NCBI GenBank assembly: GCA_002408205.1
Contig: DHQY01000003.1
Coordinates: 132 to 64,131 of the forward strand
Length of the DNA stretch: 64,000 bases
Origin: Bacteroidales bacterium UBA5326
GTDB lineage: Bacteria > Bacteroidota > Bacteroidia > Bacteroidales > UBA932
Direction: 5' to 3'
A model generated the notes under the pieces. It saw only the letters and a list, made by a program, of their open reading frames with translations. It ran no database searches and was not told the DNA's origin. The position numbers and the translations under genes are program-made. This document shows, in pieces, positions 1,176 to 9,011 of this stretch (position 1 is the first letter of the stretch; every line of letters starts with the position of its first letter).

Positions 1176-2018
1176 TTACAACCCGGTTTGAATGTTCATG
1201 CTTATATCCAGTGCAGTAACTGAATGGGTCAGCGCTCCCACGCTGATGTAATCTACTCCGGTGGTCGCAACTTCCCTTATCCGGCCCAATGTCATGTTCC
1301 CCGAAGCTTCGGTTTTCGCCTTTTTATCCACCAGGCGAACGGCCTCGGCCATAAGGGAGGTGGACATATTATCCAGCATAATAATATCGGCTCCCGAGGT
1401 AAGAGCTTCCTTTACCTCTTCTATACATGTGGTTTCGACTTCAATACGTACGCCGGGCGTTATGTAGTCTCTTACCTGCTGTACAGCCCGGGTAATACTG
1501 CCCGCTACCTTAATATGGTTGTCTTTGATAAGGGCCAGATCGTACAGTCCCATCCGGTGATTGGTCCCGCCTCCGGCCTTAACGGCCATCTTATCAAGGA
1601 TTCTCATGCCGGGAGCCGTTTTACGTGTATCCAGAAGATGAGTTTGGGTTCCTTCTGTTTCCTTAACATATAAAGCAGTGGCCGTAGCAATGCCGGACAT
1701 ACGCTGCAATATGTTCAACACGGTACGTTCGGCTGTCAGCAGCGCGCGAAAATTGCCTTCTACTTTCAGAATTACATCTCCTTGTGAGACCTTTTCCCCT
1801 TCTTTAACATACGGCGTACAAATGATGTCTTTATCCAGTCGGCTAAATACTTTCCCGGCTATCTCAAGGCCGGAAACTATACCATTGGCTTTCATAGTAA
1901 GCGTGGCAACGGCACGTGAATTTTCGGGAATAAGGGCATTGGTAGTGATGTCCCCGGCAGCCACATCTTCTTCAAATGCCAGCGTAATTATCTGGTCAAT
2001 CAATTGTTCCCTGTTCAT
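1176..2018 (-). CDS. nadC: Nicotinate-nucleotide pyrophosphorylase (quinolinate phosphoribosyltransferase) NadC
   Basis: 280-aa ORF with family-typical sequence. It lies 1 nt from nadA and overlaps nadB by 23 nt. Confidence 0.92.
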   Translation of the reverse strand: MNREQLIDQIITLAFEEDVAAGDITTNALIPENSRAVATLTMKANGIVSGLEIAGKVFSRLDKDIICTPYVKEGEKVSQGDVILKVEGNFRALLTAERTVLNILQRMSGIATATALYVKETEGTQTHLLDTRKTAPGMRILDKMAVKAGGGTNHRMGLYDLALIKDNHIKVAGSITRAVQQVRDYITPGVRIEVETTCIEEVKEALTSGADIIMLDNMSTSLMAEAVRLVDKKAKTEASGNMTLGRIREVATTGVDYISVGALTHSVTALDISMNIQTGL

Positions 2019-3594
2019 GATTTGTGTTTTTTATTACGGGTTCTGTATAGATATCTTTATCTTTTTGTTGTATCAGGTGTTTTTCAAAGGCTGTTTCCGT
2101 GGAAGGAAAATCTTTCCTGAAATGACCTCCGCGGCTTTCCTTTCTGTATAATGCCGCCCGTATGATCAGACCGGCTACCGTGATCAGGTGATTACTTAGC
2201 AAAGTATAGTATTCGTTGTTGTCTGTGTGTATTTTCTGCCGTTCTTCTTTGAGCAGGGCCAGACCCTCTGACAGGGAAGAATCTTCCCGGATGATTCCGG
2301 CATGAACGCTCATAATATCTGCAATGTGTTTTTTCAGTCTTACATATTCTCCGGACAGGCTCTCGTCCCTGTATATATATTTTGTGAATGAAGGCCAGTC
2401 CGTTTTTGGTTGTTGATGTGCAACGGTGTGTTCTATAGCGCGGAAGCCGAAAACCAGGCATTCGAGTAAAGAATTGGAGGCAAGCCTGTTGGCTCCCATT
2501 ATTCCTGTTGAGGCCAATTCGCCGCATACAAACAGACGCCGGATGTTTGTTCTTCCGTATAAATCGGTTCTGACTCCGCCAACCATGTAATGTGCGGCAG
2601 GGGCAACAGGGATCCTGTTTGTAATATCTATCCCGAGTTGATCACATTTTTCGGAGATGTGCGGGAATCTTTCACGTATCCGTTTAGGATTCAGGTGGTC
2701 CAGTGTCAGGTATACGAAAGGTTGTTCCTGTCCGGAAATTTCGCATGCGATAGTCCGGGCTACGATATCTCTGGGAGCCAGCTCGGCATTCTCGTGAATG
2801 GCTTTCATGAAACGTTCTCCTTTCTGGTTTACCAGGCAGGCACCCTCTCCGCGCACCGCTTCACTGATAAGGTAATTTTTTTCTGAGGTGGTATACAGGG
2901 TCGTAGGGTGGAACTGGATAAATTCCATATCGGCAATCCGGCATCCTGCGTTATAGGCAATTGCTACTCCATCTCCAATAGTGGTCGCCGGGTTGGATGT
3001 ATGTGCATAAATGGCCGAAGCTCCGCCCGAGGCCAGAATGGTATTTTTTCCCAGGAAATGTTGCTCACAACAAGCCGCCGTATTCCATGTCCTTATTCCA
3101 AAGCAAATGCCATCATACATTAAAAGTCCCACAGCCTGATGATGTTCGAAAATATCGATGTTATGGCAGGCGCGAACTTTATTGATCATGAAATCTGTTA
3201 TGACCATCCCGGTGACATCGCCGCCTGCATGCAAGATCCTTCTTTTATGATGACCGCCTTCGAGCCCCAATAATAAGGTGCCGTCTTGGCGGTCAAAATA
3301 CATACCCTCCCTTTCAAGTTCTCTTATCCTTTCGGGGCCTTCATTTACCAGGATATCTACGGCAGGATGATCACACAGTCCCCTTCCGGCGGTAATAGTG
3401 TCGCTATAATGAAAAATGGGGGCGTCTTCTCTGTCCGTGACAGCGGCAATTCCTCCCTGGGCATAATATGAATTGCTTTCCCGGAGATCAGTTTTGGTAA
3501 TCAGGGCAACGGTCCCGTATTTTGCAGCCCTGAAAGAAGCATAAAGACCGGCCAATCCGCTCCCGATAACCACATAATCATACTTTGGCATCAC
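1996..3594 (-). CDS. nadB: L-aspartate oxidase NadB
   Basis: 532 aa. N-terminal FAD dinucleotide fold VVIGSGLAGLY, fumarate-reductase/succinate-dehydrogenase flavoprotein-like body, nad operon context. Confidence 0.92.
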   Translation of the reverse strand: MMPKYDYVVIGSGLAGLYASFRAAKYGTVALITKTDLRESNSYYAQGGIAAVTDREDAPIFHYSDTITAGRGLCDHPAVDILVNEGPERIRELEREGMYFDRQDGTLLLGLEGGHHKRRILHAGGDVTGMVITDFMINKVRACHNIDIFEHHQAVGLLMYDGICFGIRTWNTAACCEQHFLGKNTILASGGASAIYAHTSNPATTIGDGVAIAYNAGCRIADMEFIQFHPTTLYTTSEKNYLISEAVRGEGACLVNQKGERFMKAIHENAELAPRDIVARTIACEISGQEQPFVYLTLDHLNPKRIRERFPHISEKCDQLGIDITNRIPVAPAAHYMVGGVRTDLYGRTNIRRLFVCGELASTGIMGANRLASNSLLECLVFGFRAIEHTVAHQQPKTDWPSFTKYIYRDESLSGEYVRLKKHIADIMSVHAGIIREDSSLSEGLALLKEERQKIHTDNNEYYTLLSNHLITVAGLIIRAALYRKESRGGHFRKDFPSTETAFEKHLIQQKDKDIYTEPVIKNTNHEQGTID

Positions 3595-3678
3595 TTTGAT
3601 TTTGTGGCGCGAAATTACTCTTTTTTCTCATATTTCGGTGCTAAAAAGGGTGTTTGGTTAACCCAGGGGGGAAAAGGC

Positions 3679-4329
3679 TCAGAGAAGCGAGCGTTCCTGA
3701 CGGGAATAAAGAATAGTTTCCAGCAAAGGGCGCAACGGCTCACGGAAGACATAGACAATCAGCACAAGAATAACTATCAGTAAGATAATACCCAAAGTGA
3801 TCCACATTCCGCCCAGATGCCGTTGTTTCGTATCCCTATCCGATGATGCAAGTGCCGGAGGCGGTGTTTCGGCCGGGGTAAGTTCTTCGTGTTTTGGCGG
3901 CGAAACAGGGCTTTTGATTTTTGACGGAGCTTCCAGCGGACTGAGAGAAAGCGGGACGAGGCCGAAACCTCCCGGATTGAGTGTAATGCTTTTATCAATT
4001 ACAAAGAAGATATCCCCCTCCTTGGTACGGCGTAATTTTCCGAAATCTTCCAGCGTGACCGATTTTTCTTTGTTCAGGGAATGGTTTATCCTTACTAATA
4101 GTTCATTCAGTTCTGCTTTAGATTCCACGGCGTTTTCCAGCAGTCCGTCGTTCCATGTTTCAGAGGCCTTAAAAGAAATGCGACGACCCGGAGGCAAAAG
4201 TACATGCGAATCTCTTGTAAATGAGGCCGGTATATCTTCCGCAATAAAACTGCCCAGCGTGCCTAGCGACACACGGTTGCGGGTAAGCAGCAATTCCTTG
4301 CAATGAGAAGCTAATTGAGAGGTTTCCAT
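3679..4329 (-). CDS. Membrane-anchored protein with two HU-CCDC81-like (HU-fold) modules
   Basis: 216 aa. It has two copies of the 'L/FG.F....PP/NPG..I.F' pattern (VSLGTLGSFIAEDIPASF...LLPPGRRISF and VTLEDFGKLRR...ITLNPGGFG), a Pro-rich linker and a C-terminal TM helix (MWITLGIILLIVILVLIVYVF). Confidence 0.6.
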   Translation of the reverse strand: METSQLASHCKELLLTRNRVSLGTLGSFIAEDIPASFTRDSHVLLPPGRRISFKASETWNDGLLENAVESKAELNELLVRINHSLNKEKSVTLEDFGKLRRTKEGDIFFVIDKSITLNPGGFGLVPLSLSPLEAPSKIKSPVSPPKHEELTPAETPPPALASSDRDTKQRHLGGMWITLGIILLIVILVLIVYVFREPLRPLLETILYSRQERSLL

Positions 4330-4338
4330 TTTCGTTTA

Positions 4339-4346
4339 CAAAATTA
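4339..4346 (-). promoter_or_regulatory. TAnnTTTG -7 box (TAATTTTG on the minus strand) for the HU-CCDC81-like gene
   Basis: Plus strand reads CAAAATTA. The box lies 9 nt upstream of the ATG at 4329. Confidence 0.45.
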
Positions 4347-4389
4347 CACTTTTTTAGGAAAAGATTTTGCTGGTTCAGGAAAATCCGTT

Positions 4390-4397
4390 TATATTTG
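4390..4397 (+). promoter_or_regulatory. TAnnTTTG -7 box (TATATTTG) for tRNA-Asn
   Basis: Bacteroidetes sigma-A -7 consensus, 20 nt upstream of the mature tRNA 5' end. Confidence 0.5.
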
Positions 4398-4417
4398 CAC
4401 TCCCGTTTGGGAAAAAT

Positions 4418-4494
4418 TCCTCATTAGCTCAGTTGGTTAGAGCACCTGACTGTTAATCAGGGGGTCCAAGGTTCAAGTCCTTGATGAGGAGCCA
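4418..4494 (+). tRNA. tRNA-Asn (anticodon GUU), CCA encoded
   Basis: Perfect cloverleaf: acceptor TCCTCAT/ATGAGGA, anticodon stem CCTGA/TCAGG with loop CTGTTAA (GTT), T arm CAAGG-TTCAAGT-CCTTG, discriminator G, then CCA. Confidence 0.95.
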
Positions 4495-4498
4495 AATA

Positions 4499-4529
4499 AA
4501 GAGCAGTAAAACATACTGCTCTTTTTTTT
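4499..4529 (+). terminator. Rho-independent terminator after tRNA-Asn
   Basis: 9-bp stem AAGAGCAGT / ACTGCTCTT with a 7-nt loop, followed by a T run (4522-4529). Confidence 0.85.
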
Positions 4530-4563
4530 ATGCCCGGAGAATAGGTGTTATTTAAAAAAAAAG

Positions 4564-4571
4564 TATATTTG
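4564..4571 (+). promoter_or_regulatory. TAnnTTTG -7 box (TATATTTG) for the thr leader transcript
   Basis: Consensus box 9 nt upstream of the leader ORF ATG at 4581. Confidence 0.5.
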
Positions 4572-4580
4572 CCGCAGAAT

Positions 4581-4643
4581 ATGCATTATTTCGCCGGACA
4601 TATTATTATCACCATTACCATTATTACCCCTTTGGGGGTTTAA
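4581..4643 (+). CDS. Candidate thr-operon leader peptide (20 aa, MHYFAGHIIITITIITPLGV)
   Basis: ATG..TAA ORF, too short for the ORF track. Nine consecutive codons (4602-4628) are Ile x6 / Thr x3. It sits between a promoter box and the ApgM-like/thrC genes. Confidence 0.6.
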   Translation: MHYFAGHIIITITIITPLGV

Positions 4644-4663
4644 TTCTTTCGTTTCCGGCCAGG

Positions 4664-4681
4664 AAGGCTTAGAGCCTTTTT
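4664..4681 (+). terminator. Weak candidate attenuator hairpin plus U tract in the thr leader
   Basis: AAGGCT (4664-4669) / AGCCTT (4673-4678) with a 3-nt loop, followed by TTTTT. The stem is short and was not folded computationally. Confidence 0.3.
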
Positions 4682-4781
4682 GCTACAAAAATCCAAAACA
4701 AAATAAAATCTGATCTTCGGAACGGCCATTTGTGTCTCCGGGCGCCGTGTATGCAGATCGTTAATGGTAATGACAATAATC

Positions 4782-6038
4782 ATGAAATATATAATAATAT
4801 TGGGAGACGGAATGGCCGATGAGCCTGTTCCGGCATTGGGCGGAAAAACACCTTTACAGGCGGCCTTTACTCCATGTATGGATGCGATGGCCCGTGCGGG
4901 TCGTTGCGGATACCTGAGAACCATACCTCAGGGCTTTTCTCCGGGGAGCGAGATCGCCAATATGAGCCTCCTCGGGTACGATGTACGCACTCAGTTTGAA
5001 GGGCGGGGCTCTCTGGAAGCGGCCAGCATGGGAATAGAAATCCCCGCCGGTTTTATGGCTGCCCGGTGCAATCTTATTTGTGAACAAAACGGCCGGATAA
5101 AAAATCATTCAGCCGGGCATATTACTACCAGTGAAGCTACCGAGCTGATGCTTTTCCTGCAAAGGGAAATGGGGTCCGGCGAGGTGCGCTTCTTCCCCGG
5201 CGTCTCTTACCGTCATTTACTGTTAGTGAAAGGGGGCGATAAACGCATAGATTGTACCCCGCCGCACGATGTAGCTGGAACTGAGTGCGATAAGGTGATG
5301 GTGAAAGCACTCGTGCCCGGGGCGATGGGTACCGCGGACCTGTTAAATCACCTGATCCTGCGTTCCCGGGAATTGTTGCCCGGTCATCCCGTGAATTTAA
5401 AAAGAAAAGCCGAAGGCAAGGACCTAGCCAATTCCATTTGGCCCTGGTCTCCCGGTTACCGTCCGGTTATGAAACCTCTTACAGCATTATATCCCATAAG
5501 CAGCGGATCTGTTATATCGGCTGTTGACCTGATAAAAGGCCTTGGGGTGTATGCGGGCCTGGAACCTGTTGATGTTCCAGGTGCCACCGGATTGTATACG
5601 ACCAATTACGAGGGGAAAGCCCGTGCCGCGCTCGATGAGCTTCGCCGGAAAGATTTTGTTTTTTTACATGTCGAGGCCTCGGACGAGGCCGGTCACGAAG
5701 GCAACGTGGACCTGAAGATCCGTACCATTGAATACCTGGAACACCGTCTTATACGTCTCATTTACGAAGAAACGGCAAAATGGGATCACGAGGTAACCAT
5801 AGCCGTCCTTCCCGACCATCCCACATATTGTCGTACACGTACCCATGCCGCCGATCCGGTTCCTTTTTTGATTTATCGCCCGGGTAACCGGAATCAAAAA
5901 TCATCTGATGATTTTGAGGCAGATGCCGTACAGGTCTTTGACGAATTTTCTGTCTCGGAAGGTGCTTACGGAGTACTCGAAGGCGATGGCTTTATCCGTG
6001 CTTTTTTTAATCAACAACCTATAATTTTAAACAAATGA
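4782..6038 (+). CDS. ApgM-family (cofactor-independent phosphoglycerate mutase-like) metalloenzyme; probable non-orthologous homoserine kinase
   Basis: MKYIIILGDGMADEPVPALGGKTPLQAA... is the typical ApgM N-terminus. The ORF track start at 4764 was trimmed to the ATG at 4782. ATGA overlap with thrC. Confidence 0.8.
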   Translation: MKYIIILGDGMADEPVPALGGKTPLQAAFTPCMDAMARAGRCGYLRTIPQGFSPGSEIANMSLLGYDVRTQFEGRGSLEAASMGIEIPAGFMAARCNLICEQNGRIKNHSAGHITTSEATELMLFLQREMGSGEVRFFPGVSYRHLLLVKGGDKRIDCTPPHDVAGTECDKVMVKALVPGAMGTADLLNHLILRSRELLPGHPVNLKRKAEGKDLANSIWPWSPGYRPVMKPLTALYPISSGSVISAVDLIKGLGVYAGLEPVDVPGATGLYTTNYEGKARAALDELRRKDFVFLHVEASDEAGHEGNVDLKIRTIEYLEHRLIRLIYEETAKWDHEVTIAVLPDHPTYCRTRTHAADPVPFLIYRPGNRNQKSSDDFEADAVQVFDEFSVSEGAYGVLEGDGFIRAFFNQQPIILNK

Positions 6039-7342
6039 ACTATTACAGTACCAACCGACAATCCCCACACGTTAATCTCAGAGAAGCCGTTGTGAAAAGC
6101 CTGGCCCCGGACAGCGGACTCTATATGCCGGAATGTATCCCGATAATGCCGCCATCTTTCTTTGACCGGATTGAAAACAAAAGCTTTCAGGAGATCTCTT
6201 ACGACATTGCCCTGGCATTCTTCGGGGAAGATATTGACAAAGAAGCTCTTAGTCAGATTGTTTATGATACGCTTTCTTTTGATGTGCCTTTGCATGAAGT
6301 AAGCAGGGATATATACAGTCTGGAGTTATATTACGGCCCCACGCTGGCCTTTAAAGATATCGGGTCGCGCTTTATGGCGCGGTTACTTAGTTATTTTACG
6401 CAGGAAAACGGCCGCGAACGGGCCGATATTCTGGTGGCCACAACCGGTGATACGGGCGGTGCCGTAGCCAACGGATTTCTGGGAGTGGACGGAGTCCATG
6501 TACATGTGCTCTATCCCGGAGGGATGGTCAGTGATATACAGGAAAAACAGTTTACCACCCTTGGAGGTAACGTAACCGCGCTGGAAGTGGACGGCACATT
6601 TGACGATTGTCAGCGTTTGGTTAAAACGGCTTTTGTGGATAATGAGCTTCAAGGCAGACTTAACCTGACATCTGCCAATTCAATTAACGTGGCCCGTTTT
6701 CTGCCCCAGATATTTTATTATTTCCATGCCTGTGCCCAGTGGAAAAAAATGAATCCCCGGAGAAAAACAGAGCTTGTTTTTTCCATCCCCAGCGGAAATT
6801 TTGGCAATATTACGGCGGCTTCTTTCGCACGAAGAATGGGTTTGCCTGTGAAGAGACTTATTGCAGCCAATAACCGGAACGATGTGTTTTTTGACTTTCT
6901 CAGAACCGGACAGTACCGTCCCCGGCCTTCCGTTGCTACACTGGCAAATGCCATGGATGTGGGCGATCCGAGTAATTTTGCCCGCGTGCTCGATCTTTTT
7001 GATCATTCCCATGAGGCCGTGTGTCGCCATATACGCGGCGCCCGTTTTGATGACAGACAGATTGCAGAGACTATCTCCGCTTTGTATAAAGAGACCGGTT
7101 ATTTAATGGATCCTCACGGGGCCTGCGGCTATGCCGCTCTAAAAGAAGGCCTGGAGAACGACGAGACCGGAATCTTCCTGGAAACGGCACATCCGGCCAA
7201 ATTCAAAGAAATTGTTGAAAAGATAATCGGGGCAGAGATTGAAATGCCCGGGCAGCTAGCCTCATTTATGCAAAGTGAAAAACAAACCGTCCCCTTAAGC
7301 AGCCGTTATGAGGACTTTAAGGCGTATCTTATGGCCTGTTAG
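6035..7342 (+). CDS. thrC: Threonine synthase
   Basis: 435 aa. PLP-lysine motif GPTLAFKDIG and overall ThrC family features. Confidence 0.93.
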   Translation: MNYYSTNRQSPHVNLREAVVKSLAPDSGLYMPECIPIMPPSFFDRIENKSFQEISYDIALAFFGEDIDKEALSQIVYDTLSFDVPLHEVSRDIYSLELYYGPTLAFKDIGSRFMARLLSYFTQENGRERADILVATTGDTGGAVANGFLGVDGVHVHVLYPGGMVSDIQEKQFTTLGGNVTALEVDGTFDDCQRLVKTAFVDNELQGRLNLTSANSINVARFLPQIFYYFHACAQWKKMNPRRKTELVFSIPSGNFGNITAASFARRMGLPVKRLIAANNRNDVFFDFLRTGQYRPRPSVATLANAMDVGDPSNFARVLDLFDHSHEAVCRHIRGARFDDRQIAETISALYKETGYLMDPHGACGYAALKEGLENDETGIFLETAHPAKFKEIVEKIIGAEIEMPGQLASFMQSEKQTVPLSSRYEDFKAYLMAC

Positions 7343-7902
7343 AATGAGATCACGTTTAGATGTTCCAGAACAATCTTCACTCCGATAAGTATAAGAATAA
7401 TACCGCCGGCCAGTTCCGCCCGGGAACTGAGCCGGTTCCCGAAAACCGTGCCAATTTTTACACCCAGGAAAGACAGAAGGAAAGTAATTGCTCCTATAAG
7501 CGCCACCGCAAGCAAAATATTAGTCTGAAGAAAACCGAGTGTGATGCCAACGGCCAAAGCGTCAATGCTGGTGGCAACGGCCAGTACCAGCATGGTTCTG
7601 GCCGCAAAAGAACAATCCGTTTTATTATCCTTATCGAAAGATTCCACAATCATCTTGCCTCCGATGAAAACAAGCAAACCCAAAGCAATCCAGTGGTCCA
7701 CACCGGCTATCAGGGAATGAAGCCGGCTGCCCAGCAGATAGCCCAGAGCAGGCATAAGCGCCTGAAAACCTCCAAAGTAAAGGCCCGCTTTTAAGGCGTT
7801 TTTCCAGTTCATTTCTTTCATGGCCATGCCTTTGCAGACAGAAACGGCAAAGGCATCCATGGAAAGGCCAACGGCCATAAATAGGAGGTTAAGAATACCC
7901 AT
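7339..7902 (-). CDS. mntP: Manganese efflux pump MntP
   Basis: 187-aa polytopic membrane protein with the duplicated MntP motif (LSMDAFAVS / TSIDALAVG). Confidence 0.88.
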   Translation of the reverse strand: MGILNLLFMAVGLSMDAFAVSVCKGMAMKEMNWKNALKAGLYFGGFQALMPALGYLLGSRLHSLIAGVDHWIALGLLVFIGGKMIVESFDKDNKTDCSFAARTMLVLAVATSIDALAVGITLGFLQTNILLAVALIGAITFLLSFLGVKIGTVFGNRLSSRAELAGGIILILIGVKIVLEHLNVISF

Positions 7903-7917
7903 ACGGTATTAATTCAG

Positions 7918-7925
7918 TATTTTTG
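7918..7925 (+). promoter_or_regulatory. TAnnTTTG -7 box (TATTTTTG) for ansB
   Basis: Consensus box in the 56-nt divergent mntP/ansB spacer. Confidence 0.4.
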
Positions 7926-7937
7926 TTTTTTATCGCG

Positions 7938-7945
7938 CAAAGTTA
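7938..7945 (-). promoter_or_regulatory. TAnnTTTG -7 box (TAACTTTG on the minus strand) for mntP
   Basis: Plus strand reads CAAAGTTA, 35 nt upstream of the mntP ATG. Confidence 0.4.
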
Positions 7946-7964
7946 ACAAAAGATAGGTATGTAT

Positions 7965-9011
7965 ATGAAAAAAACATTAGTTGCAGCAGCCGTCCTGCTT
8001 TCCTTACAGCTTGCCGCCCAGCCTTTGCCACGCATTACCGTCATTGCCACCGGAGGCACCATTGCCGGGACGGCTCCCACCGCCACTCAGGCAGGCTATT
8101 CTCCGGCCCGTCTTACGGTAGAATCCCTCCTTGGGCAGGTCCCCCAGCTGGCATCAGAAGCGGATGTTTCCGGCTATCAGCTGTGTAATATTCCCAGTCA
8201 GGCCATGACCCATGACATCTGGCTTCGCCTGGCTTGTGTGATAGATTCGCTTTTTACGGGGGGACATTGCGACGGTGTTGTGGTTACCCACGGAACCGAC
8301 ACCATGGAAGAGACCGCCTATTTTCTTCATCTCACGGTTCCTCATGACCTGCCTGTTGTGCTTACGGGGGCAATGCGTCCGGCTACCGGCCTGAGTGCAG
8401 ACGGCCCGATGAATTTGTACAATGCCGTAATGCTGGCGGCCAGTCCCTTGGCGCGGGACCGAGGAGTTATGGTGGTAATGAATGATTATATTTTTTCTGC
8501 CGACGATATAGTTAAAACCAATACAGTCAATCCCAATGCCTTTGAATGTCCGAATTACGGTCCCCTGGGCACGATCAGGGGGGGCGTACCGGTTTTTTTC
8601 CGTAAAACCTTTACCAGGCATACTTCACGAAGTGAGTTTTCTATAAGGAAACTGTCGGGCAAACCGCTTTCGCATGTAGAAATAGTTCTTTCTTACGCGA
8701 ATGCTTCCGATATACAGTTAAATGCTCTGATTGACTATCCGGTGGACGGCATAGTGATTGCCGGCGTGGGTAACGGCAATTTTGCCCCCTCATTTATGAC
8801 AGCCATTGCAAAAGCCAATGAAAAAAAGATCCCGGTGGTGCGTGCCACCCGAATCATTTCAGGCGGGGTAAGTTCCGGGCTGGAAGATGTGTTCCCGGGA
8901 CAGATAGCCCCCGGCTGCCTGTCGCCGCAAAAAGCCAGGATATTGCTTATGCTGGCTCTTACACAAACAGACGATCCGGAACTGATAGGAAAAATATTCC
9001 TTGAATATTAA
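7965..9011 (+). CDS. ansB: Periplasmic L-asparaginase, type II
   Basis: Signal peptide ([19 protein letters not shown]), catalytic motifs ATGGTIAG and [10 protein letters not shown]. An alternative ATG lies at 7959. Confidence 0.9.

Follow-up and report, generated by a model that had tools for sequence, protein, structure and literature searches.

A probable Ile/Thr leader-peptide attenuator upstream of a homoserine kinase-like gene and thrC in a Bacteroidales lineage

We analyzed a 64,000-nucleotide stretch of DNA (the window) from Bacteroidales bacterium UBA5326 (contig DHQY01000003.1) with regard to a short open reading frame (ORF) that lies ahead of two threonine-biosynthesis genes and that probably serves as the leader of an attenuator. 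The first structural gene encodes an ApgM-like putative homoserine kinase, its start at 4782 coinciding with the position of the MKYIIILGDG N-terminus of its homologs, and the second is thrC, the 5' end of which shares 4 nt with the end of the kinase gene (features are collected in Table 1). A preliminary description of this DNA had placed the leader upstream of the thr genes, which is correct for these two genes but needs amendment in that the kinase is of the type named "proposed homoserine kinase" in TIGR02535 and that no thrA homolog was found anywhere in the 64-kb window. The promoter box, the 20-codon ORF, and the nine consecutive Ile or Thr codons of that description were all located where it had put them. 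The ORF begins 9 nt after the promoter box and ends at a UAA stop codon (4641-4643). The Bacteroides promoter consensus, from which the position of the transcription start is deduced, implies a very short leader 5' untranslated region (UTR) of ∼5 nt before the AUG. The Ile/Thr run is far beyond chance: translation of the window in all six frames gives no other run of seven or more residues, and the runner-up among the 644 short ORFs in these frames has five.

For comparison, 165 related Bacteroidales loci (L001-L165, comprising 1.4 Mb of DNA) were gathered by way of the ApgM-like protein. At most of these loci thrA (811 aa) is the first gene of the operon and is immediately followed by the ApgM-like gene. 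At 52 loci a short Thr-rich ORF stands at the head of the operon and ends at a near-invariant hairpin motif, ACCCCUNNGGGGG(U); outside the window lineage, every such leader precedes thrA. The motif is specific to this position, as ACCCCTNNGGGGG occurs 52 times in the 1.4 Mb and all 52 occurrences are at leader ends. By record title, the carrier loci belong to Barnesiella, Parabacteroides, Bacteroides, Proteiniphilum, and other Bacteroidales, including both genomes and metagenome-assembled genomes (MAGs). The leader ORF is thus conserved among related Bacteroidales, and the analogy to the Ile/Thr leader of the E. coli threonine operon that had been drawn from the window alone is upheld by homologous Thr-rich leaders with the same end hairpin at all of these loci.

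The hairpin at the leader end, which we call P1, was present in all members of the family with an invariant stem and a variable loop. The leader ORFs end in either T-T-P-stop or T-P-x-G-V-stop, and two architectures can be distinguished on this basis: in the TPxGV form (group A, to which the window belongs) the stop codon lies just after P1, and in the TTP form a UAG stop codon lies within the P1 loop. The residue following Pro varies with the loop (Trp, Leu, Ala, Met, or a stop), and the GGGGG strand is kept even beyond a UAG located in the loop, which argues that the constraint on P1 acts on the RNA and not on the peptide. In the TTP half of the family, the element that most resembles a terminator is P1 itself, in an extended form with U6-8 after it (-10.7 to -13.9 kcal/mol), so the output stage differs between lineages. 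An Rfam search with cmscan returned no match to a leader-region family, either for window positions 3500 to 8000 at E ≤ 10 or for six related loci at E ≤ 1, and hits to the P9 and STnc410 families that overlapped the leader (E values of 0.7 to 9) were set aside as chance matches. On sequence comparison these leaders constitute a Bacteroidales thr-leader family that is absent from Rfam, with the window as a thrA-less, Ile-rich variant. Two observations concern loci outside the motif-defined set. A Rikenellaceae MAG (L068:1380-1440) carries, upstream of thrA, another candidate thr leader, MTTTLPLAPQRSLAHF followed by a stop codon, with a GGCUCC-ACAGC-GGAGCC hairpin and without the CCCC/GGGGG motif. 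No leader was detected at the Muribaculaceae loci L041, L060, and L080, where thrA directly follows another gene.

The leader directly precedes the ApgM-like gene, without thrA, only in the window and in three relatives with 97% protein identity (L081, L082, and L086; hereafter the 97% relatives). This lineage also has the sole Ile-dominated leader of the family: the 12 codons before Pro comprise three Thr, six Ile, and no Met codons, as compared to means of 3.8 Thr, 0.8 Ile, and 1.0 Met for the same codons of the thrA-linked leaders. ThrA supplies all three branches (Met, Thr, and Ile), and homoserine kinase and ThrC lie on the Thr branch and serve only Thr and, via Thr, Ile; for this reason the combination of Ile and Thr without Met fits the pathway position of a thrA-less operon. 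Leader codon content tracks operon content, with Thr and Met codons accompanying thrA and Ile and Thr codons, without Met, accompanying the kinase gene and thrC only. Alignment with the nearest thrA-linked clade (L001, L087, and L085; the L001 clade) revealed clear homology over the control codons, P1, and the terminator-like hairpin that follows. Between the window and the 97% relatives there is one substitution in the 102 nt from the leader AUG to this hairpin, versus five in the 99-nt spacer. The other close relatives are at 90% identity and their contigs break off 20 to 40 nt before the start codon; the databases searched contained none at intermediate distance, and a query with the N-terminal 80 aa gave nothing above 78% identity. 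The window lineage can be regarded as a natural experiment in which the leader was kept on loss of thrA and its codons shifted from Thr/Met to Ile/Thr.

The leader transcript contains several further pairing elements. The CCCC-UUU-GGGG hairpin reported at the leader stop was found at 4627-4638 as the core of P1, and the GCCGGA/TCCGGC and AAGGCT/AGCCTT complementarities, with the U run after the latter, were likewise confirmed. In constrained folding, the GCCGGA:UCCGGC helix, which encloses P1, formed with a probability of 0.98 in the ribosome-free leader and was lost with a ribosome positioned at the first Ile codons. The L001 clade has a counterpart of this enclosing helix, recognized by eye, with another sequence (CGAAAGA/UCUUUCG). 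Downstream of the stop codon, a pyrimidine-rich segment can pair with GGAAGG to give a candidate antiterminator, P2. Its 5' arm starts 2 nt after the leader stop codon (2 to 3 nt for the helix) and, by eye, 0 to 4 nt after the stop codon in the group A relatives, and it therefore lies within the footprint of a terminating ribosome. The terminator-like hairpin, T2, has a predicted energy of -5.4 kcal/mol for its core and -10.4 kcal/mol when extended into the U run. P2 overlaps the 5' arm of T2, so the two structures are mutually exclusive. When the window lineage was aligned with the L001 clade, 91% of the P2 cells were paired, with one compensatory C-G/G-C change and two wobble changes, and all T2 cells were paired, with one compensatory U-A/C-G pair. 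A scan for terminator-like sub-stems detected hairpins after the leaders at 14 of 29 loci, versus 3.9 expected.

We consider it probable that the locus is a leader-peptide attenuator that couples expression of the homoserine kinase/threonine synthase operon to the levels of charged tRNA-Ile and tRNA-Thr. By a similar measure of confidence, this attenuator is likely to be the form taken in the window lineage by a Bacteroidales-wide thr leader, which consists of a short Thr-rich ORF with the near-invariant ACCCCUNNGGGGGU of P1 formed by its final codons. In the mechanism that we propose, transcription would start a few nucleotides before the leader AUG, and P1 together with the following U-rich stretch would hold or slow RNA polymerase while a ribosome moves into the control codons, in the role of a 1:2 or pause hairpin. 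A ribosome stalled at the first hungry Ile or Thr codons would mask GCCGGA, leaving the pyrimidine-rich segment free to pair with the 5' arm of T2 and allowing read-through into the operon. A ribosome that reaches the UAA codon would instead cover the pyrimidine-rich segment, so that T2 would form and transcription would stop. In the absence of a ribosome, closure of GCCGGA:UCCGGC would exclude P2, and T2 would again form and stop transcription. This arrangement of elements fits classical attenuator geometry, though the predicted antiterminator energies are weak. When nascent transcripts with 3' ends at 4669 to 4672 were folded, the 5' arm of T2 was paired with a probability of 0.60 to 0.76 with the ribosome on the first Ile/Thr codons, as compared to 0.43 to 0.48 with the ribosome at the stop codon or without a ribosome; the predicted ribosome effect is thus in the right direction and modest in size.

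Several results weigh against this mechanism. The candidate antiterminators are weak (approximately -4 kcal/mol) relative to T2, and in constrained folding T2 formed at equilibrium with a probability of ∼0.96 whatever the position of the ribosome, with no clear alternation between terminator and antiterminator. The stem of T2 is short and followed by only three to five U residues, and a standard terminator scan does not flag it, whereas the sub-stem scan does. Approximately half of the terminator-scan matches in the relatives are P1 itself, and many loci have no strict terminator downstream. The covariation in P2 and T2 rests on about three effective sequences, and the C4650A substitution in the 97% relatives removes one P2 pair. 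The 5' UTR deduced for the window leader is also shorter than the spacing of 19 to 38 nt that separates the same promoter box from the leader AUG in the relatives. Finally, we know of no demonstration of transcription-translation coupling in Bacteroidetes.

The preliminary description had favored a different output, in which the control codons themselves sequester the initiation region of the kinase gene. We confirmed the complementarity on which this proposal was built: CATTACCATTA (4613-4623), within the control codons, is the exact reverse complement of TAATGGTAATG near the start codon, and the match extends to 22-nt arms that are 82% complementary. The predicted energies were -11.7 kcal/mol for the 11-bp perfect helix and -15.7 kcal/mol for the duplex. 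A perfect 11-nt complement arose in 62 of 5000 dinucleotide shuffles of positions 4742 to 4800 (1.2%) and in 105 of 5000 (2.1%) when the whole ORF was compared with the whole spacer; it was found in none of 2121 genomic windows of 59 nt. The complementarity is therefore real and somewhat beyond chance, being moderately unusual before correction for look-elsewhere effects, and it is lineage-specific, without comparative support. A second match described between ATTATT and AATAAT exists in the window as an AU-only, low-complexity 6-bp pairing with several alternative partners, but it is broken in the 97% relatives by T4777C, which produces a central A·C mismatch.

Folding gave a divided answer as to whether the 11-bp helix could control initiation. 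For positions 4575 to 4800, the range for which folding had been proposed, the helix was present in the minimum free energy (MFE) and centroid structures, its probability was ∼0.9 for all 3' ends up to 4815, and the energy needed to open the start region dropped from 8.3 to 3.9 kcal/mol when positions 4600 to 4630 were masked as ribosome-occupied. When positions 4811 to 4818 were included, the probability of the helix fell to 0 to 0.4, as it was replaced by GCCGGA:UCCGGC together with a duplex between 4723-4739 and 4803-4818; the gain on masking, 3 to 4 kcal/mol in short windows, was zero in longer ones. The competing duplex belongs to a 5' UTR segment, UCGGAACGGCCAUUUGUGUCUCC (4717-4739), that is complementary to the early kinase coding region (4803-4832) in three blocks: 4717-4723 with 4826-4832 (7 bp), 4723-4730 with 4811-4818 (8 bp, perfect), and 4734-4739 with 4803-4808 (6 bp). 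The 97% relatives differ from the window at three positions of this segment, in each case without loss of pairing. The UTR:coding duplex was rejected as a conserved feature, with p ∼0.06 in the window and mixed results elsewhere, and is retained only as a competing fold.

Comparative data bear on the same question. The number of pairs expected between the ORF and positions -20 to +12 of the start region was 20.5 in the window, versus 8.2 ± 5.2 in shuffled sequences (p = 0.02); AU-rich Ile codons and start regions pair by composition, so the null itself already reaches about eight pairs. This base-pair-probability test detected no such pairing in the nearest thrA-linked clade (p = 0.34 for L001 and 0.92 for L085). 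A duplex test likewise reached significance in no more than a few lineages. Of the approximately 14 lineages compared, none stood out apart from the window and a single Barnesiella lineage, the latter pairing analogously with different sequences (p = 0.007 for L019, 0.026 for L024, and 0.05 for L040), and combining the lineage median p values by Fisher's method, by hand, gave ∼0.12, so that leader:start pairing is not family-wide. RNAalifold found no conserved leader:start helix in the Barnesiella group; for the Barnesiella and Bacteroides groups it returned only P1 and poorly aligned helices. The covariation that had been looked to for the 11-bp helix could not be read, the helix being identical in the 97% relatives and the remaining sequences being no closer than 70 to 78%. 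The target is moreover older than its partner: AUGGUAAU also occurs upstream of thrA in L001, within a local hairpin that has different loops in L001, L087, and L085, which argues that the target box predates the Ile-rich leader.

With the pairing missing from the nearest clade and lost from the longer folds, sequestration of the initiation region by the control codons was not sustained as described. That a 4613-4623:4762-4772 helix represses the start codon of the kinase gene, which is without a Shine-Dalgarno (SD) sequence, and that a stalled ribosome keeps this start open, as either the main or an additional output, seems to us unlikely, even though the apparently constitutive T2 of the thermodynamic models leaves room for another output. 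Correspondingly, the 11-bp complementarity might conceivably add a lineage-specific translational layer to the attenuator, but this is doubtful and is not needed to explain the locus. A more speculative-sounding combination, to which we give similarly little weight, is a dual-output attenuator in which the same Ile/Thr codons both sense tRNA charging and act as an anti-initiation sequence, such that one stalled ribosome would prevent termination and unmask the start. It is just as tentative to suppose, within that scheme, that such leader:start-region pairings arose independently in the window lineage, after thrA loss, and in at least one Barnesiella lineage (L019/L024). Two observations on the target region may be recorded here. 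In-frame ATG codons ahead of the kinase gene lie at 4764 and 4770 in addition to 4782; initiation at either upstream codon would place the start codon within the 11-bp helix. The AUGGUAA sequence (4765-4771) can be folded into a 7-nt loop closed by a 4-bp GUUA/UGAC stem (4761-4775), like the anticodon loop of tRNA-Thr(GGU). Such mimicry was discarded as a probable coincidence, the loops of the L001 clade being different (UAUGGU, UAAGGU, and CUUGGC).

A second alternative to the T2-based attenuator is that the decision is made at P1 or by a factor, with T2 having a minor or stabilizing role. With an AUUA/UAAU extension and the U-rich stretch after it, P1 might serve as a pause site or terminator whose 5' arm a ribosome stalled on the control codons would occlude directly, or Rho might act on the G-poor spacer at 4683-4715. 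P1 is the sole universally conserved RNA element of the family, its extended form is the best terminator candidate in the TTP half, where the stop codon is in the loop, the standard terminator scan flags P1 plus TTAATTCTTT in the window, and the spacer after T2 is indeed G-poor and A/C-rich. P1 would be covered by a terminating ribosome no less than by a stalled one, however, so direct occlusion by itself cannot discriminate between states of Thr supply. P1 in group A, the window included, is also only 5 bp long with a 3' flank that is not a clean U tract, and T2 and P2 show compensatory changes. We regard this alternative as quite improbable. The possibility that an AT-rich intergenic region has given rise to the ORF and its complementarities by chance, with no regulatory role, to which an unexceptional fold of the whole region (z = -1.5, with 18 of 200 shuffles folding as well) and the ease with which AU-rich repeats find complements might point, is very improbable and appears strongly disfavored by conservation at the family level, given an Ile/Thr run that is unique in 64 kb, an ORF and hairpin at 52 thr-operon heads with the motif nowhere else in 1.4 Mb, and a leader that is better conserved than the spacer.

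The spacer between the attenuator and the kinase gene is itself structured, and each of the three substitutions found there in the 97% relatives (4717 U>C, 4736 C>U, and 4738 C>U) keeps the pairing (3/3). In the TPxGV group, the region from the attenuator to the start codon includes a hairpin with a conserved RUUUGU loop motif; the window has CAUUUGU, and the relatives have GGRC-RUUUGUNN-GUCC-GAC, situated ∼40 to 60 nt upstream of thrA in L004, L005, L007, L089, and L090. Pairing of the P1 GGGGG strand with UCUCC (4735-4739) was considered and rejected, as the 97% relatives have UUUUC at that site. Upstream of the leader, a tRNA-Asn gene occupies 4418-4494 and has its own strong terminator. 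In place of this tRNA gene and terminator (window positions 4330-4530), one 97% relative (L086:2414-4275) has ∼1.8 kb of DNA that contains a minus-strand ORF of 183 aa and a plus-strand ORF of 269 aa. Homology between the window and this relative resumes ∼35 nt upstream of the TATATTTG box, indicating that the promoter-leader-operon unit is conserved as a block while its upstream neighbor differs. Aspartate-family functions are abundant around the locus (1996-9011).

Table 1. Features of the leader, its operon, and the neighborhood (window coordinates)
Feature	Positions	Strand	Basis or remark
nadB, L-aspartate oxidase	1996-3594	-	Neighborhood
Promoter box TATATTTG (Bacteroides-type -7, TAnnTTTG)	4564-4571	+	Sequence
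Leader ORF, 20 codons, MHYFAGHIIITITIITPLGV then stop	4581-4643	+	Translation; homologous ORFs ending T-P(-x-G-V)-stop in 52 loci
GCCGGA, 5' half of enclosing helix, proposed anti-antiterminator ("region 1")	4593-4598	+	Pairs with 4654-4659
Control codons, nine consecutive: six Ile (AUU/AUC) and three Thr (ACC)	4602-4628	+	Sequence
P1 hairpin, ACCCC-UUUG-GGGGU, over the last Thr, Pro, and Gly-Val codons	4626-4639	+	-7.9 kcal/mol; family hallmark
Pyrimidine-rich segment UCUUUCGUUUCC, P2 5' arm, proposed antiterminator	4645-4656	+	Pairs with GGAAGG, 4662-4667
UCCGGC, 3' half of enclosing helix	4654-4659	+	Pairs with 4593-4598
T2, terminator-like hairpin, core AAGGCU-UAG-AGCCUU (4664-4678) then UUUGCU	4660-4684	+	Sub-stem scan
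Structured spacer: outer GAUCU/AGAUC, inner hairpin 4717-4722/4736-4741, loop containing CAUUUGU	4712-4760	+	Folding
TAATGGTAATG, exact complement of control codons 4613-4623, 10 nt upstream of start codon	4762-4772	+	Sequence
ApgM-like putative homoserine kinase gene	4782-6038	+	TIGR02535, 501 bits; NF003242, 513 bits
thrC, threonine synthase	6035-7342	+	TIGR00260, 300 bits
mntP, manganese exporter	7339-7902	-	Neighborhood
Type II asparaginase gene	7959-9011		Neighborhood

Leader-peptide attenuation requires ribosomes close behind RNA polymerase, and Bacteroidetes initiate translation without SD pairing. A thr leader peptide as such will not surprise a specialist; the usefulness of the present family lies in its hairpin hallmark, its two architectures, and the coupling that it would imply in a phylum without SD-directed initiation. 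Widespread and easily recognized by ACCCCUNNGGGGG at the end of the ORF, these leaders offer a natural handle for testing coupling and amino acid sensing in gut Bacteroidales. Were the direct pairing between control codons and start region to prove functional, it would be a compact new combination of transcriptional and translational control.

The literature searched contained no description of a Bacteroidales thr leader, although two older comparative-genomic surveys of attenuators outside Proteobacteria may cover Bacteroidetes. Those by Vitreschak et al. (FEMS Microbiol Lett, 2004) and Lopatovskaya et al. (Mol Biol, 2010; cited in PMC4833913) reportedly include candidate leader-peptide attenuators of Bacteroidetes/Chlorobi amino acid operons and may include the thr leader or its Ile-rich variant. 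A transcriptome paper on B. thetaiotaomicron mentions leader-like small ORFs only generically, and the transcription start that it places 10 nt upstream of BT_2403 is uninformative here.

Among known systems, the helix between control codons and start region invites comparison with the translational attenuation of erm and cat genes, in that occupancy of the leader by a ribosome would decide the pairing of a downstream start. In erm and cat the stall comes from a drug and the nascent peptide, and a four-segment rearrangement exposes an SD sequence. In the window it would come from tRNA starvation, and the pairing would be direct, over ∼140 nt, with no SD sequence and without comparative support. 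The enterobacterial thrL leader (RF00506, Thr_leader) resembles the attenuator that we favor more closely: both have a short ORF with a run of Thr/Ile codons before threonine-biosynthesis genes, a dual Thr/Ile logic, and alternative hairpins, which in the window are predicted ones, with a terminator-like hairpin and U run between the leader and the first gene. The window leader nevertheless has no sequence or structure homology to thrL (no RF00506 match at E ≤ 10). It is distinguished by the invariant CCCC/GGGGG hairpin at the ORF end, by its position 9 nt after a Bacteroides-type promoter box with a deduced UTR of ∼5 nt, by an operon of the ApgM-like kinase gene and thrC without thrA, and by a predicted antiterminator that is much weaker than that of the enterobacterial model. 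The Bacteroid-trp leader (RF01692) of Bacteroidetes comprises an ORF with Trp codons and a terminator. It differs from the window leader in its amino acid and motif, and cmscan of the window and six relatives gave no match to it. The two nonetheless belong to one phylum and follow one principle, in which an amino acid operon is preceded by a small ORF bearing regulatory codons and by a hairpin with its U run, and the Bacteroid-trp leader is the closest precedent that we can name in the phylum for leader-peptide attenuation in SD-poor Bacteroidetes.

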